From the sequence record PX421306.1: DNA of 64,000 nucleotides, one strand, 5' to 3'. Both the position numbers and the translations under genes were made by a program. This document shows, piece by piece, positions 3,573 through 45,815 of the stretch. The notes beneath the pieces were generated by a model. The model made no database searches and was not told the origin of the DNA. It saw only the letters and a list, made by a program, of their open reading frames with translations. This DNA comes from a phage. Every line of letters starts with the position of its first letter. Within the stretch, counting starts at the first letter, position 1.

Positions 3573-4208
3573 TCACAGTTCAGATGCTACGGTGATTACA
3601 GCTTCAATGTTTTCTGCCGAGCGTTTAATGTCAAGATACACATTACCGTTTTTAGCGATTTTACATGACATTCCGATATCAGTAAATTTCTGAATATGAT
3701 GTTCCATCATTTTGTATCCAAAAATTCGCATATTTCCATTGTTGTTAATTTCAAAATTACGAATTCCGTGAGTGCGTTTTTCTAAAATAGCAAGATAGTT
3801 ACTACGATAAGTTTCAACCTTTTTAAGAACAAATCCATTTTCATCTAAAAGTTTTAACATGAAGTCTTTATCTTCTTCCATATCAGAAGTAATCTCGCGA
3901 GCTTTACGAGTTGCTCGTTTTTTCAGCAGTTCAGGAGCGTTTTCCTGCGCGTATAAAGTTGCCGCATTTGAAATAATATCCTGAGCTTCACCTGTAATGA
4001 TTAATCCATCACCAGATTTCTCTACCAGGCCTTTTTTAATCAATACCCCAATATTACTATTAACTACTGCATTACCTAAATCTGGATGCACCTCACGAAC
4101 TTCTGCAGCTGTAATGAAATCTTTCTTAGCAATGGTAATTAAAATCGCAGCAGTTTTTTCATTCAGAACATCGTTAGAAGCTTTGATGATGTAAGTTACT
4201 TTAGACAT
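3573..4208 (-). CDS. motA: Middle-transcription activator MotA
   Basis: 211 aa MSKVTYIIKASNDVLNEKTAAIL... matches remembered T4 MotA. Confidence 0.95.
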   Translation of the reverse strand: MSKVTYIIKASNDVLNEKTAAILITIAKKDFITAAEVREVHPDLGNAVVNSNIGVLIKKGLVEKSGDGLIITGEAQDIISNAATLYAQENAPELLKKRATRKAREITSDMEEDKDFMLKLLDENGFVLKKVETYRSNYLAILEKRTHGIRNFEINNNGNMRIFGYKMMEHHIQKFTDIGMSCKIAKNGNVYLDIKRSAENIEAVITVASEL

Positions 4209-4490: not shown

Positions 4491-5815
4491 TTGATTTCCT
4501 CTAAATCTTTAGTGTATTCTGTAACTACATCAGTAGTTTTCCAATATTCGTTTTCTTCTTTTTTAGCTTTAGCTTCTTCAGCAAGTTTCTTTGCTTCGTC
4601 GGAAGTCATATGAAAAATGTTCATTCCGACTAGTTTATCAACATAAGAAGAATACATCTCAATTTTAGAAAGTTCTTCGGTCAGTTCTTTACGAGTTTTA
4701 CCCTGCACAACAATTTCACCTGAAATTACTTTCTTAATGAAATGTGCCTTGGCAAAGGCTAAACGAAATGCTGATTCAGTTTCTTTGATTTTGTTATCAA
4801 TTCGTTTTTGGACATAAGTTTTACGAACTTCAACGAAGTCTTTAATTAAATCAACTACGTTATCGTAAACTTGTAACTTTCCTTTCTCGTTGATGACTGT
4901 AATATTTTGGGAACGACGCTCAATCAACCCGAAGTCTTTCATGATTTTTGCATGGCGTTCTTCTTCGTTATCGCTCAAAGAATATTCTTTGCGGAATTTA
5001 ACTTTAAAGCCAAAACCATGCTCACCGCAAGCATCATCCCACGTAATGAAGCCTTTATCTTCAAGCGGGTCTAAGATTTTACTCACATAAGTTTCACGAT
5101 CATACTTATACGGAATCTCAGTGATATGCATTTGAGTTCGTGAAGTAAACTTGTACGTTCCACGAATTTCATATTGACCGTCAATTTCAACGACTTCACC
5201 ACGAAATTCTGGGAATTCTACCTTCGGTTTAGTTACTTTCTTTCCTTGAAGAGCTTGTAGTACAGCTTTCTTGACAGAAGAAACACTATGAGGAAGAATG
5301 TAAGTTGCATAACCAGTTGCAATACCGGAAACACCATTAAGAAGAACAGTAGGAATAATAGGCAAATAGAAAGCAGGCGGAATGTGTTCTTTATCTTGAT
5401 GTACCGGAGCATATTCAGTATCTTTATATACGCTATAGAAATTTTTACTTACACGAGCAAAAATATAACGACTTGCCGCTGCTTTTTGAACGGTACGAGA
5501 ACCAAAGTTTCCTTGACCATCTAACAAAGGAAAGTTATTATTCCAAGTATTAGCCATCAAAGCCCCCGCGTCTTGCGCAGAGTTTTCACCATGATGATAT
5601 CCAAGGTCAGCTACACCACCTGCAATAGAAGCGAGTTTGTGAAACTTATCTTTATTTCCTCGCGCCAAATCAAGAGCTCGAGCAATAACAAATCGTTGGA
5701 CTGGCTTAAATCCATCAATCATATTTGGAATAGCACGATTTTCAACCGTGTACATAGCATAAGCCAGTGCTTCATTATCAATGATACTTTTTAAATCGCG
5801 ATTATTCAGTTGCAT
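4487..5815 (-). CDS. 52: DNA topoisomerase II medium subunit gp52
   Basis: 442 aa; matches remembered T4 gp52 in sequence and length. Confidence 0.95.
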   Translation of the reverse strand: MQLNNRDLKSIIDNEALAYAMYTVENRAIPNMIDGFKPVQRFVIARALDLARGNKDKFHKLASIAGGVADLGYHHGENSAQDAGALMANTWNNNFPLLDGQGNFGSRTVQKAAASRYIFARVSKNFYSVYKDTEYAPVHQDKEHIPPAFYLPIIPTVLLNGVSGIATGYATYILPHSVSSVKKAVLQALQGKKVTKPKVEFPEFRGEVVEIDGQYEIRGTYKFTSRTQMHITEIPYKYDRETYVSKILDPLEDKGFITWDDACGEHGFGFKVKFRKEYSLSDNEEERHAKIMKDFGLIERRSQNITVINEKGKLQVYDNVVDLIKDFVEVRKTYVQKRIDNKIKETESAFRLAFAKAHFIKKVISGEIVVQGKTRKELTEELSKIEMYSSYVDKLVGMNIFHMTSDEAKKLAEEAKAKKEENEYWKTTDVVTEYTKDLEEIK

Positions 5816-30563: not shown

Positions 30564-30908
30564 TTAAAAGAATTTAAATTTTTTCTTTGACCTTTTATTA
30601 AATGCATCTTGTAGTTGCATTGTAATACATTTTTCTACATGAGGAGCTAACTCAGCTTTTCTTTCTTGGTCAAGAACAGCAAAGTCCATTACGACTTTTC
30701 CATCAACCCAATCTAATTTTGTCACATACACAATGTGTGTAGAACCGTCTTCTAGTTTAATGACAATCTCCTGGATAACATTTTCCATGGCAGATTTAAT
30801 TATCTTAAGAGATTCATTAAAAAGACGTTCTTTTCTTTCTTCTTCCCCCTCCGAAGAGGGGGATTCATCGATAATTTCTAGATCTAAATCTAAATCATCT
30901 TTATTCAT
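30564..30908 (-). CDS. 40: gp40 (head vertex assembly protein)
   Basis: Track ORF trimmed from GTG to an ATG that overlaps the uvsX stop; start site uncertain. Confidence 0.7.
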   Translation of the reverse strand: MNKDDLDLDLEIIDESPSSEGEEERKERLFNESLKIIKSAMENVIQEIVIKLEDGSTHIVYVTKLDWVDGKVVMDFAVLDQERKAELAPHVEKCITMQLQDAFNKRSKKKFKFF

Positions 30909-32082
30909 TAAATTCTTCCATATCACTTAACTGATCTAGGTCAGTTTCTAAATCAGCTGCTGATTTACTTTTACTTTCTGGAGATTTAAATTTTTCAACC
31001 TTTGAGTTAATCAATTCATCAACTTCAGCTTCAACAATTTCATTACTATCAATAGCACCTAACTGATAAGCGCGTTTAATAGCATCTCGGAATGGTTGAT
31101 GCTTAAATAAAGGACCCCAGAATGTAGTGCAATTGGTATCTTTTGCACGCCAAGATTTTTCTTCGCGAATCATCTCGCCGGTTTCTTCATCAAGAAATTC
31201 ACGAGCATACCAACCATTTTTAGGTTTTACTACAAATCCTAATTCAAGAGCCATATCTAACAATCCGGAATAAGGATCGATGCCACCGTCAAATTTAACA
31301 TCAATAAAGAATTTACTTTTTTCTTTAACGGTACGAGATTTTTCTACATTTAGAACAAATTGATACCCCTGAAGATCAGAACCATCTTTAATCTGGCGCT
31401 TACCGATAATGAATACAGTATCAGCCGAATACATTACGCCTGTACCACCTGTCATCACGGTTTTACTAAACATTTCAATTGTTTCAATTGTATGGTTAAC
31501 CGCAACGCACGGAATGTTTTTAATACTAAAATAAGGAGTAACAATACGGAATAATGACTTCAGTGATTTAGCACGAGTCATATCTGCCACGGATTTTTCA
31601 TTCAAGGCATCTTCCGTTTCTTTCTTAGAAGCCATATTACCGATTGAGTCGATGAATACAATAACTTTTTCACCACGCTCAATAGCTTCAAGCTGATTCA
31701 CCATATCAATTTTCAGCTGTTCAACTGACTGAATTGGCGTATGAATTACTCGTTCCGGGTCAACTCCCATGGATCGCAAATAAGCTGGAGTAATACCAAA
31801 TTCGCTATCATAGAATAAACAAACCGCATCAGGATATTTGTTCAAATACGCCGCAACCATAGTCAAAGACATATTTGATTTAAAGTGTTTAGAAGGACCT
31901 GCAAAAATAGTTAAACCAGACTGCATACCACCATCAATCGCGCCGGAAATAGCGATATTGAGCATTGGAATTTTTGTACGGATTACATCCTTTTCATTAA
32001 AGAATTTAGATGTAGTCAGTTCAGCAGTCATTTTAGAAGTGGAAGCTTTAATCAAACGGGATTTTAAATCTGCAATAGACAT
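30901..32082 (-). CDS. uvsX: UvsX recombinase (RecA-like)
   Basis: 393 aa; matches remembered T4 UvsX across its length. Confidence 0.95.
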   Translation of the reverse strand: MSIADLKSRLIKASTSKMTAELTTSKFFNEKDVIRTKIPMLNIAISGAIDGGMQSGLTIFAGPSKHFKSNMSLTMVAAYLNKYPDAVCLFYDSEFGITPAYLRSMGVDPERVIHTPIQSVEQLKIDMVNQLEAIERGEKVIVFIDSIGNMASKKETEDALNEKSVADMTRAKSLKSLFRIVTPYFSIKNIPCVAVNHTIETIEMFSKTVMTGGTGVMYSADTVFIIGKRQIKDGSDLQGYQFVLNVEKSRTVKEKSKFFIDVKFDGGIDPYSGLLDMALELGFVVKPKNGWYAREFLDEETGEMIREEKSWRAKDTNCTTFWGPLFKHQPFRDAIKRAYQLGAIDSNEIVEAEVDELINSKVEKFKSPESKSKSAADLETDLDQLSDMEEFNE

Positions 32083-32159
32083 TCATTTTTTCCATAGGCA
32101 TCATCATATTTTCCTCACTGGTTAAAGATAGAGTAATTATAACACAATAAATTTAGGCA

Positions 32160-33002
32160 TTAATCAACTGCTATTGGATGAATAGCATTAAACTTATGAA
32201 ACGCTTCTGATTTTTCTTTGCGCGAAACACACATGCGAAGAACCTTTAATGGCTCGTCTTCTTCACCCAACGATTTTCGTTTTTCAATATTAGAAGTTTT
32301 CCAACGAGCTTGCTCTGGAAACTCTTTATTGATTTGCTCAAGAGCTCTATTATGTTTTGAATTACTACGAATTGAACTACATCCGCCTGGAGCTTGTGCT
32401 TTTCCAGACACAACCAGATATTTGAACAAAGCCAAATGCGGATAACCTTGGTTAATTAAATTGAGAAATGCATACATATCTTCACATAAATCAATTTTTC
32501 CATACCCAATTTGTTCTGTAGTAAGTTTTCCGAGGTCATACCATGTATTCGTGAATCCATATGAATTTTCACGATAATTACCCCAAGATGAAGTAATTTT
32601 AAAAATAGGTAGACGAGCATGACCGTGATAATACCCGCAATCCATGGCATCTTCCACGTATTGAATCAATTCATAGAACTGTTCACGAGTTAACTGATTA
32701 ATTTTATCTACGCAGCGACGATCATCTTTCTTTCGCATTGAACTCATACGAATAGTAGTATCATCATCAATCATCCAAATTCGTTGACCTGCATACATAT
32801 CAGTAATTGCTTTACGAGTTCCAGCAATTCCATTAACATCATCAGGAATAGTTATAATTTTAGCTCTAGACCCGTAAGCGTCATAATAAGCTTTTTCTTC
32901 GTGTTCACGTACTACAATATGAGGTTCATAATCAGTCGGAAACATATCAAGGGCAGAAACTGTCCCTACGCGTTGATAGCTTGGAATTACGAATTGAATC
33001 AT
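32160..33002 (-). CDS. Putative DNA glycosyltransferase (GT-A-like, DDD motif) at the beta-gt locus
   Basis: 280 aa from ATG (track start is an upstream GTG); N-terminal FVIPSYQR and IWMIDDD motif; ATG overlaps gene 42 stop; T4 has a 351-aa beta-gt here. Confidence 0.8.
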   Translation of the reverse strand: MIQFVIPSYQRVGTVSALDMFPTDYEPHIVVREHEEKAYYDAYGSRAKIITIPDDVNGIAGTRKAITDMYAGQRIWMIDDDTTIRMSSMRKKDDRRCVDKINQLTREQFYELIQYVEDAMDCGYYHGHARLPIFKITSSWGNYRENSYGFTNTWYDLGKLTTEQIGYGKIDLCEDMYAFLNLINQGYPHLALFKYLVVSGKAQAPGGCSSIRSNSKHNRALEQINKEFPEQARWKTSNIEKRKSLGEEDEPLKVLRMCVSRKEKSEAFHKFNAIHPIAVD

Positions 33003-33739
33003 TTCCACTCACCGTTATAATCTTTTTTCGCAATATGAGTTTCGCCAGTTTTCCACCAATGGTCAACCAAATAAAAATGACGGGAATACACATGAAGGCT
33101 TCCGACATTCCATATAATGGAACCTGCTTTATACTGACGAGTTGAATCACCTGCATTCAAATCAGATACTAATTTATCTAGTACGTATTTTTGCCATGCA
33201 TAATCATTACGGAATCCGAAGACCACGTCATTTGAACGCATGTTAACCACTGCATTAATTTTCTTATCACGAATCAGATACTGTACTGTATTCGTACACA
33301 TGAAATCTGACATGCCATCTTTATTGTAGTCAAACTGCATGGATGGACGAGTATAAATCATGATACCACGTCGAGAATCAGGATTTTGACCAAGTTCAGC
33401 TAAACACATATCATATTGGGCATAGTTATCTTCTGACCAGATGGCCCAACCATAATTCGAGTTAATTTCGCCTTTAGAAGATGCTACCTGCTGCCAAATC
33501 TTTGGTGTTTCACCTGGAATATCTTTAACAAACAGACTTTGAGACTTATACCATTCAAGTTCACGCTGAATGTATTCATCATTAAGAGCGCCAAAAATAA
33601 AAGGTTCATCTGCTACAAATGATGCACCAATAATTTCAATAGTTTTAACCCCGGTTTTATCAATTACGAAATCTTTTTCCTTTAATGCAAGACCCAAATC
33701 AAGACGGATTTCTTCAACTGTCATATAATCGTTAATCAT
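32999..33739 (-). CDS. 42: dCMP hydroxymethylase gp42
   Basis: 246 aa; thymidylate-synthase-like; length and position match T4 gp42. Confidence 0.95.
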   Translation of the reverse strand: MINDYMTVEEIRLDLGLALKEKDFVIDKTGVKTIEIIGASFVADEPFIFGALNDEYIQRELEWYKSQSLFVKDIPGETPKIWQQVASSKGEINSNYGWAIWSEDNYAQYDMCLAELGQNPDSRRGIMIYTRPSMQFDYNKDGMSDFMCTNTVQYLIRDKKINAVVNMRSNDVVFGFRNDYAWQKYVLDKLVSDLNAGDSTRQYKAGSIIWNVGSLHVYSRHFYLVDHWWKTGETHIAKKDYNGEWK

Positions 33740-33746
33740 TTAAACC

Positions 33747-33896
33747 TCAATTGATGCATTCATATTTAATTTGTAACAGTAATAAACTCCAACCTATAAT
33801 AAGTGGCGGAATCATAAGAGGAACTGTTACGCTATAGTATATACTTATTATAATCATCAAGATTAAAAGCAATACTGCTAAAATTTTGCTTTTCAT
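33747..33896 (-). CDS. Small hydrophobic peptide (49 aa)
   Basis: Hand-translated MKSKILAVLLLILMIIISIYYSVTVPLMIPPLIIGWSLLLL...; ATG overlaps the upstream stop. Confidence 0.5.
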   Translation of the reverse strand: MKSKILAVLLLILMIIISIYYSVTVPLMIPPLIIGWSLLLLQIKYECIN

Positions 33897-34144
33897 TCCT
33901 TCTCTCTGATGATAATTACTTGATTTTGCTGTACAGATTTTTTAGTTTCACCTGCAATTGACCAAATAAATGTAATAAACCAACCAATGATTGACCAGTT
34001 AAACAGTAAAGATGTGAAAAAGATTCCTACTGTCGATTTTGACCCACGCATCAAGGCGATGAACCACGGAAGCATGTATATAATAATAGCCAACACGCCT
34101 GAAACTAAAACCATAAAAATTGAACCTGCTACTAAAGTTTCCAT
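33893..34144 (-). CDS. imm: Superinfection immunity membrane protein Imm
   Basis: 83 aa with two hydrophobic segments; between genes 42 and 43 as in T4. Confidence 0.75.
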   Translation of the reverse strand: METLVAGSIFMVLVSGVLAIIIYMLPWFIALMRGSKSTVGIFFTSLLFNWSIIGWFITFIWSIAGETKKSVQQNQVIIIREKE

Positions 34145-34151
34145 ATTTTCC

Positions 34152-34532
34152 TCACTTAGTCAAATTTTTTACACATGAATTATAAGAATTTACTACATAC
34201 TCCATCGGAGCATTTTTACCAGTACGCCATTGGTAATTATTAGCCCAATTTGCCCAAAGTTCAGCACAGTAGTTTTCAATTTTTTCTTCACGCGTAATCA
34301 CATCTGAATTACGATATGCTTGTGCAGATTCATCTGGACGAATAGCTTCGTCAAAATTCGCCTGCATTTGTTCTACTGTCTGTTTTGGAGCCTCTTTATA
34401 ACACTTGACGTTAGGATTATAAAATTTGCTTGAACAGTTTACAATTTTTCCTACATCAGACTGATTTACTACTGGTCCTTGAGCTACACATCCAGTAAGA
34501 CCCAATGCAATAACCAAAATAGCGATTTTCAT
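34152..34532 (-). CDS. Putative lipoprotein (126 aa)
   Basis: Signal peptide MKIAILVIALGLTGC (lipobox). Confidence 0.75.
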   Translation of the reverse strand: MKIAILVIALGLTGCVAQGPVVNQSDVGKIVNCSSKFYNPNVKCYKEAPKQTVEQMQANFDEAIRPDESAQAYRNSDVITREEKIENYCAELWANWANNYQWRTGKNAPMEYVVNSYNSCVKNLTK

Positions 34533-34542
34533 AATAATTTCC

Positions 34543-34779
34543 TCAAATACAAGTAGTAATTACTCCAGTAGTGCTTACACAGGTATTACCTAATTGAACA
34601 CCCAGCGTTCCATTAGTATTCATATGAAGATTATCATCAATTTTTGTTGATACTTTACCATTCATGTGAATAATAGTATTAGATTCAATCACATTCTGAG
34701 TGTCATTTTCAATATCAATAAATGGAACAGTTGCTAATGCAACTAAACACACTGCTAAACAACCATAAACAATTTTCAT
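34543..34779 (-). CDS. Secreted/membrane protein (78 aa)
   Basis: Track ORF trimmed to ATG after conserved leader GGAGAATAAAATG; hydrophobic N-terminus. Confidence 0.65.
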   Translation of the reverse strand: MKIVYGCLAVCLVALATVPFIDIENDTQNVIESNTIIHMNGKVSTKIDDNLHMNTNGTLGVQLGNTCVSTTGVITTCI

Positions 34780-34807
34780 TTTATTCTCCAAATCCGTATC
34801 AGTTGAT

Positions 34808-34848
34808 AGTTGTATAGTATCATGGAAGAACGGGAATGTAAACAGTTT
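34808..34848 (-). promoter_or_regulatory. Early promoter (cassette copy)
   Basis: Minus GTTTAC (plus 34838-34843), 18 bp, TACTAT (plus 34814-34819). Confidence 0.55.
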
Positions 34849-34925
34849 TGTGAAAAAAATTTTTAATGAATTTACAGGACCTAGAATCATCTATTTTTCC
34901 TAAGTATAGATTTATATTACTTGTA

Positions 34926-44596: not shown

Positions 44597-44614
44597 AAAG
44601 GGCCGAAGCCCTTT
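44597..44614 (-). terminator. Terminator hairpin (CGAA/UUCG loop) overlapping the a-gt stop
   Basis: aaagggc-cgaa-gcccttt. Confidence 0.65.
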
Positions 44615-45815
44615 ATTTTGTAATAATGTCAAACTGTTCTTTAAAGCAGAAGCTTGAATCTTGATGCTGATACAAAAATTCATAAGCTTTTTCACGTTCA
44701 CGGTCATAAAGAGCTCGGTCAGATGACAGTTCTTTAATACGTTCAAATGTTGATTCCATGTCATTTTCATCAAACCAAACGATACCGCTATCATGAGAAA
44801 TTAACGGAGTATTATCAACACGGAATTTTAAATTTTCGCCAGTAGATTTCCAAAATACTGGAATTGTTCCACATGCACCAAGCTCGAGATGAGTGTATTC
44901 TAAAGAACGCTGTAGATATTTTTTATCTAATTTACTCAGCTGATAACCAAATCCGGATTTACTCATGCGTTCAAGCATTTCGCTATTTACATAACGGTCG
45001 AGAATTTGCGTTGGCAAATTAGGAGCAATTTTAATTTGGTCTACTTGATGAAGACGATAATACTCGTATGGAATTCCTTTTTCTTTAATAGGAATGAATG
45101 CTGGAGAACGTTCCAGACCTTCCATAACAGTACTTAGTCCTGCGGGTTTAAGATGTTTTTCGTGAAAATCAAACATCTGATAAAAACCTTTCCATGTAGT
45201 AGTACGACCAATCCAACGGTTGATATTCATGTTAATTTCAGAAACATCTTTCCAGTAAGTTGATCGAACCTTCGCAATATCCATAGGAGGCTGAAAGTTA
45301 TATACGGTCGGTGCTTCTTCAATATCATCAAACAGAGAAACAGTTTCCGGATACCATTCTTTCATTAAAACTTTATTAAAATCACCATTATCAGAATGGC
45401 TAAAAATAACATCAGCTTGACGAACAGTTTCTTCTAATCCCAAATTTCGGCGCAAAGAAAGAGAAGAATGGTCATGTTGATAAACTACAACACGAACCGA
45501 AGGTTTAATGTTATCAATAATTTTTTTATAGTTATTAATTGTGTCTTCTTCAACTGAAGTAGCAGGAACTGAATTGATAATTAGAATATCACAATCATTT
45601 ACCAGTTTAAGTGTTTTATCGTATTCTTTTGCCAATAAAACCGGAATTGAAAATGATTTATAATCATGCGCGCAATTACGGGTAAATGATTTATCTTTAG
45701 CATAAACCAAAGTTACTTCATGACCATTTTTAATAAACCAATCACGCTGCTCAAGAGAAAATTTAGTTACGCCACAACCTTCAAGACCTCGAGCCATAAA
45801 AATGCATACTTTCAT
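44613..45815 (-). CDS. a-gt: DNA alpha-glucosyltransferase
   Basis: 400 aa; length and position match T4 alpha-gt. Confidence 0.95.
   Translation of the reverse strand: MKVCIFMARGLEGCGVTKFSLEQRDWFIKNGHEVTLVYAKDKSFTRNCAHDYKSFSIPVLLAKEYDKTLKLVNDCDILIINSVPATSVEEDTINNYKKIIDNIKPSVRVVVYQHDHSSLSLRRNLGLEETVRQADVIFSHSDNGDFNKVLMKEWYPETVSLFDDIEEAPTVYNFQPPMDIAKVRSTYWKDVSEINMNINRWIGRTTTWKGFYQMFDFHEKHLKPAGLSTVMEGLERSPAFIPIKEKGIPYEYYRLHQVDQIKIAPNLPTQILDRYVNSEMLERMSKSGFGYQLSKLDKKYLQRSLEYTHLELGACGTIPVFWKSTGENLKFRVDNTPLISHDSGIVWFDENDMESTFERIKELSSDRALYDREREKAYEFLYQHQDSSFCFKEQFDIITK

Follow-up and report, generated by a model that had tools for sequence, protein, structure and literature searches.

In the 64-kb window that we analysed (the whole stretch of 64,000 nucleotides, from a ~167-kb genome), the ORF list and its translation place on the minus strand at 32160–33002 an open reading frame of 280 codons that ends in a TAA stop codon at 32160–32162. 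Its predicted product begins with MIQFVIPSYQR. An earlier note on this DNA had described a 280-aa ORF between uvsX and gene 42 with an N-terminal FVIPSYQR and a DDD motif, and all of these are present in the sequence. The genes and features that frame this locus, together with the one further modification gene in our argument, are as follows.

32160–33002, minus strand: ba-gt (ggt, TAGT), probable beta-glucosyl-HMC-alpha-glucosyltransferase coding sequence, 280 aa plus TAA (ORF, Pfam PF20691, PHROG 842, T2 identity, GT-A model).
32999–33739, minus strand: gene 42, dCMP hydroxymethylase (Pfam Thymidylat_synt, 3.9e-16; relatives annotate deoxycytidylate 5-hydroxymethyltransferase).
32999–33002, minus strand: ATGA, in which the stop of gene 42 and the start of ba-gt overlap (sequence GGAAATGATT; SA21RB and T2 are annotated likewise).
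30901–32082, minus strand: uvsX, a downstream landmark outside the modification pathway (Pfam T4_UVSX_C, 4.7e-39; RecA, 2.4e-11).
44613–45815, minus strand: a-gt, DNA alpha-glucosyltransferase (Pfam PF11440 AGT, 5.3e-236, profile positions 1–355 of 355).

The ba-gt ATG (33002–33000) overlaps the TGA of gene 42 (33001–32999) within GGAAATGATT. The earlier note had called the start translationally coupled to the gene 42 stop; this ATGA overlap by itself suggests that translation of the two genes would be coupled. The mechanical ORF list begins the frame at GTG 33008, a start that we dropped because alignments of homologues and the annotations of related records favor ATG 33002. At its other end the gene stops 77 nt from uvsX. 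A scan of 31900–34200 for promoters and terminators returned 10 sites, against 10.4 expected in shuffled sequence, and none was a terminator; in one relative, the record places a sigma-70-like promoter over the stop codon of ba-gt.

Two smaller ORFs lie upstream on the same strand. The first (33747–33896, minus strand) would encode 49 very hydrophobic residues (MKSKILAVLLLILMIIISIYYSV...) in what looks like an intergenic space between gene 42 and imm, whose stop codon overlaps the ATG of the ORF in another ATGA. This frame is open and of equal length in T4, T2, T6, and SA21RB and is annotated in none of the four records. It matches PHROG 3610 (unknown function, 1.9e-24), differs between lineages by 3–5 synonymous and 6–7 non-synonymous codons, and in SA21RB contains an annotated T4-type middle promoter. 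The second (34543–34890, minus strand; 115 aa) lies between imm.1 and gene 43, where T4 and T6 have no annotated counterpart; SA21RB lists it as a hypothetical protein and T2 annotates a shorter ORF of 252 nt in the interval. Because its match to PHROG 4189 (also of unknown function) is confined to residues 38–115, the true start of this second ORF may be Met38.

Homology searches identify the 280-aa protein as a close relative of the T2 and T6 enzymes. It aligns without gaps to the protein of phage T2 (AP018813; 274/280 identical, 97.9%) and to the T6 reading frame (MH550421; 272/280, 97.1%), and it is nearest to a Tequatrovirus group comprising ime09, PP01, and SA21RB (278/280 identical to SA21RB). 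The surrounding 24 kb are 97–99% identical to the group of ime09, PP01, KFS-EC3, and SH-1. At the nucleotide level, we found ba-gt in 479 phage records, mainly Tequatrovirus phages of Escherichia, Shigella, Yersinia, Salmonella, and Citrobacter, with a best match of at least 90% identity in all but four and a top identity of 98.9%; where the matching gene is annotated, the usual name is beta-glucosyl-HMC-alpha-glucosyl-transferase or glucosyl transferase. The protein also matches PHROG 842 (beta-glucosyl-HMC-alpha-glucosyltransferase, 6e-89) and the Pfam family PF20691, TAGT (39.7 bits against a gathering cut-off of 27.5), over profile positions 2–205 of 205, and extends ~70 residues C-terminally beyond that domain. 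A Pfam RNA_binding hit to residues 216–271 (E = 0.15) fell below the cut-off and was taken as noise. A word-indexed protein search recovered 11 relatives and an exhaustive profile search 2,172 cluster representatives at E ≤ 0.001. Near-identical homologues number in the hundreds and the family exceeds 2,000 cluster representatives; as judged from these sequences, the ORF is not a chance frame.

The T2 and T6 genes share the context as well as the sequence. Both likewise encode 280 aa between gene 42 and uvsX with alpha-gt as partner, and T2 also has the ATGA overlap. The suggestion of the earlier note that this is a second glucosylation enzyme of T2/T6 type held up in comparisons of sequence and locus, and the protein is unrelated to the beta-gt of T4. 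We assign 32160–33002, with a probability of roughly 0.93, to the T2/T6-type beta-glucosyl-HMC-alpha-glucosyltransferase (ba-gt or ggt, of the TAGT family) with alpha-gentiobiosyl-hydroxymethylcytosine (gentiobiosyl-hmC) as its product. The analysis itself shows what the gene is and where it lies, which fold and conserved residues its product has, and that an alpha-gt accompanies it. The gene itself is already known, was sequenced decades ago, and is ordinary in T2/T6-like coliphages; published work includes T6 deletion mutants (PMC11078745, PMC13160076), mass spectrometry of similar phages (PMC13390438), and a GT-A assignment by AlphaFold3 (PMC13216743).

In the T6 record MH550421, codon 10 of ba-gt reads TAG (3951–3953 of the compared stretch), where this phage has CAA, and the gene is annotated from Met20 as 261 aa, so that strand 1 and the invariant R11 would be lost. 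The T2 record AP018813 names ba-gt a "hypothetical protein," the gp41 helicase a "major capsid protein," and gp40 a "baseplate hub subunit."

The same interval in T4 is occupied by a different enzyme. Between uvsX and gene 42, T4 carries the 351-aa beta-gt together with segA, and the position of TAGT genes has been described as syntenic with T4 beta-gt (PMC13390438). Both enzymes transfer glucose from UDP-glucose to modified phage DNA through a beta-glucosidic bond (PMC13216743), but T4 beta-gt (PF09198) is a GT-B protein of 351 aa whose acceptor is bare hmC, whereas ba-gt is a GT-A protein of 280 aa whose acceptor is alpha-glucosyl-hmC. We considered whether the ORF could be a diverged T4 beta-gt. 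BLASTP of the protein against T4 beta-gt gave a best E of 3.3, a tblastn search with T4 beta-gt found nothing below E = 0.8 in the 64-kb window, and a Pfam scan of the protein did not report PF09198, a profile against which T4 beta-gt itself scores 9.4e-98. We rejected this origin for lack of similarity in the BLASTP and tblastn searches. Similarly, segA, a GIY-YIG homing endonuclease gene that separates uvsX from beta-gt in T4 (4571–5236 of the compared stretch), has no homologue in the 64-kb window by tblastn; here, as in T2 and T6, only the 77-nt spacer at 32083–32159 lies in its place. Across the phage collection, ba-gt is the common state of the locus (479 records) and T4 beta-gt is rare (29 records). 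Two records, KM607002 (RB55) and KM607003 (RB59), attach the label "beta-glucosyl-HMC-alpha-glucosyl-transferase" to genes that match T4 beta-gt at 100% identity, which confuses two unrelated enzymes that share the locus.

Structure prediction places the protein among GT-A glycosyltransferases. A single-sequence AlphaFold model had low confidence (pLDDT 39.4) and was discarded in favor of one built from an alignment of 121 sequences (pLDDT 95.2, pTM 0.92). The latter shows one Rossmann-like alpha/beta/alpha domain, and its top matches among solved structures are all GT-A glycosyltransferases, including Staphylococcus aureus TarP and TarS, WrtF, the Escherichia coli K4 chondroitin polymerase (K4CP), GlfT2, and BcsA. 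The majority of these are inverting enzymes. On this model, the fold independently reproduces the published assignment for the T6 TAGT, whose AlphaFold3 model shows a GT-A fold that is sister to GT2 (PMC13216743). The model also bears on the reading that the ORF is not a glycosyltransferase at all and that its DDD and its location are coincidental. We found no support for it: a sequence search of solved structures gave chance-level matches only (E ≥ 0.95), with no structure of a family member detectable by sequence, and the fold and family matches refute it, leaving it a negligible probability. The GT-A-like enzyme proposed in the earlier note was therefore recovered, and no non-glycosyltransferase fold appeared among the top matches of the model.

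Conservation across the family singles out two motifs, with coordinates as follows.

32760–32768, minus strand: DDD motif, D79-D80-D81, codons GAT GAT GAT (D80 invariant, D79 and D81 conserved in ≥90% of 121 homologues).
32478–32483, minus strand: E174-D175, codons GAA GAT, candidate catalytic-base "ED" motif (D175 invariant in 121 homologues).

The conservation alignment comprised 121 of the 2,172 homologues, down to ~17% identity. Five residues are invariant among them (R11, D80, D175, G186, and G207) and a further eight are at least 90% conserved (I6, P7, R63, D79, D81, L180, G206, and R212); the ba-gt protein keeps every one of both sets. Its sole DDD, at residues 79–81, directly follows strand 74–78 in the model, the usual GT-A place for a DxD (after the fourth strand), and the invariance of D80 and near-invariance of its neighbors agree with the DxD-like character ascribed to it in the earlier note. 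By its role in this fold family, the DDD would be expected to hold a divalent metal and the UDP-sugar. E174-D175 opens helix 174–184 in the model, and by analogy with GT2-type enzymes D175 probably serves as catalytic base in an inverting reaction. Because the known product is beta-linked and the fold matches are of GT2 type, we infer that the enzyme would use an inverting mechanism and depend on a divalent metal.

GT2-type GT-A enzymes (TarP, TarS, WrtF, K4CP, GlfT2, and BcsA) share only 8–16% sequence identity with the ba-gt protein and act on polysaccharide, teichoic acid, or lipid-linked sugar, whereas ba-gt has as its acceptor a base of double-stranded DNA that already bears glucose. The TAGT (TET-associated glycosyltransferase) family has the IPSYxR, DDD, ED, and GGCSxxR motifs in common with the protein, and many of its members are no more than ~35% identical to it. 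Some occur without either an alpha-GT or a beta-GT and presumably use other acceptors (PMC13216743); the acceptor of ba-gt, by analogy with its characterized relatives, would instead be a sugar already on DNA.

Literature on near-identical enzymes, from which both the chemistry and the biological effect are taken, suggests a pathway of three steps. Gene 42 would supply hydroxymethyl-dCMP for incorporation into the phage DNA. The alpha-gt, a GT-B enzyme, would then add an alpha-linked glucose to hmC in the DNA, and the resulting alpha-glucosyl-hmC would serve as the acceptor of ba-gt. Finally, the 280-aa GT-A enzyme would add a second glucose, derived from UDP-glucose and beta-1,6-linked to the first, to yield alpha-gentiobiosyl-hydroxymethylcytosine. 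This last reaction is the one described for the ba-gt of T2 and T6, in which a beta-1,6-linked second glucose gives gentiobiosyl-hmC (PMC6024577, PMC13216743). The canonical alpha-gt that the earlier note had placed at 44613–45815 is indeed there, covering its full Pfam profile. From the alpha-gt plus ba-gt pathway, the DNA of this phage should therefore be of T2/T6 type by analogy, with alpha-glucosyl-hmC, gentiobiosyl-hmC, some bare hmC, and no beta-monoglucosyl-hmC. Tequatrovirus phages with an alpha-GT and a TAGT and without a beta-GT do contain hmC, alpha-glucosyl-hmC, and alpha-gentiobiosyl-hmC and no beta-glucosyl-hmC by HPLC/MS (PMC13390438), in agreement with the earlier note's expectation of a sugar pattern different from that of T4.

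These data also weigh on a different role for the protein, in which it glucosylates bare hmC directly and replaces T4 beta-gt, giving beta-monoglucosyl-hmC, as is thought for TET/JBP-linked TAGT members. Its gene lies exactly where T4 has beta-gt, its Pfam family is named after the TET-associated glycosyltransferases, and the solitary TAGT of many phages implies that some members must use another acceptor (PMC13216743). However, the protein is 97–98% identical to the T2/T6 enzyme, whose deletion from T6 leaves only alpha-glucosyl-hmC (PMC11078745, PMC13160076), beta-glucosyl-hmC is not detectable in the similar alpha-GT plus TAGT phages (PMC13390438), and alpha-gt is present here as a maker of the acceptor. 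We regard direct glucosylation of bare hmC as very improbable and retain the T2/T6-type assignment, with alpha-glucosyl-hmC as the acceptor.

How much gentiobiosyl-hmC the enzyme would make is a separate question. The proportion is ~5% in T2 and 72% in T6 (PMC6024577, PMC13160076), a difference that the literature examined leaves without a stated explanation, and the two enzymes are ~98% identical. The protein of this phage differs from that of T2 by six substitutions (R11, T14, K92, I101, K226, and P251 here) and from T6 at 7 residues plus the stop codon of the T6 record; R11 and P251 are as in T6, while Y40, D55, and R106 are as in T2. Because T2 and T6 are so alike and yet so far apart in gentiobiosylation, and because the residues here are mixed, the level of second glucosylation is not predictable from sequence. 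The mixture of T6-type and T2-type residues is the ground for reading the gene as a natural recombinant that might, through its level of gentiobiosylation, point to the few residues or the expression signals behind the T6 (~72%) versus T2 (~5%) difference, with a further version in which the acceptor or the sugar is another one; we consider this a long shot.

A low output has more to recommend it. The enzyme could be functionally minor or inactive, at the T2 level (~5% gentiobiosyl) or lower, so that the DNA would be essentially alpha-monoglucosylated. The T2 gene is 97.9% identical and gives only ~5% gentiobiosyl-hmC (PMC6024577), and Y40, D55, and R106 follow T2 and not T6. Among the Durham phages, which have the same gene content, a ratio of hmC to alpha-glucosyl-hmC to gentiobiosyl-hmC of ~1:2:2 is quoted for one group only (EL, BGP, and Geo), and a second Tequatrovirus group clusters apart by modification (PMC13390438). 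On the other hand, R11 and P251 follow T6 and not T2, and with an uninterrupted ORF that retains every invariant residue, an inactive gene appears unlikely as judged from the reading frame. Taken as a whole, we hold the minor-or-inactive reading to be doubtful but worth keeping in view; low, T2-like activity is possible and is a matter of degree, not of enzyme identity, and the T2/T6-type assignment is the one we carry forward.

The consequences for host defense are mixed. Gentiobiosyl-hmC withstands the glycosylase Brig1 in vitro, and it also withstands the glucose-removing BapA; T6 without ba-gt is more sensitive to Brig1 and has DNA that is a substrate of BapA (PMC11078745, PMC13160076). 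The earlier note had linked the sugar pattern to evasion of glucose-dependent restriction; this is documented with respect to Brig1 and BapA and does not extend to GmrSD, which still targets gentiobiosyl-hmC (PMC13216743).

In T-even phages, ba-gt decides between mono- and di-glucosylated hmC and thereby alters sensitivity to host defenses that are specific for the sugar. For this phage, the value of the assignment lies in annotation: it marks the DNA modification as probably of T2/T6 type and not of T4 type, which may help to predict host range and the behavior of restriction enzymes on its DNA.
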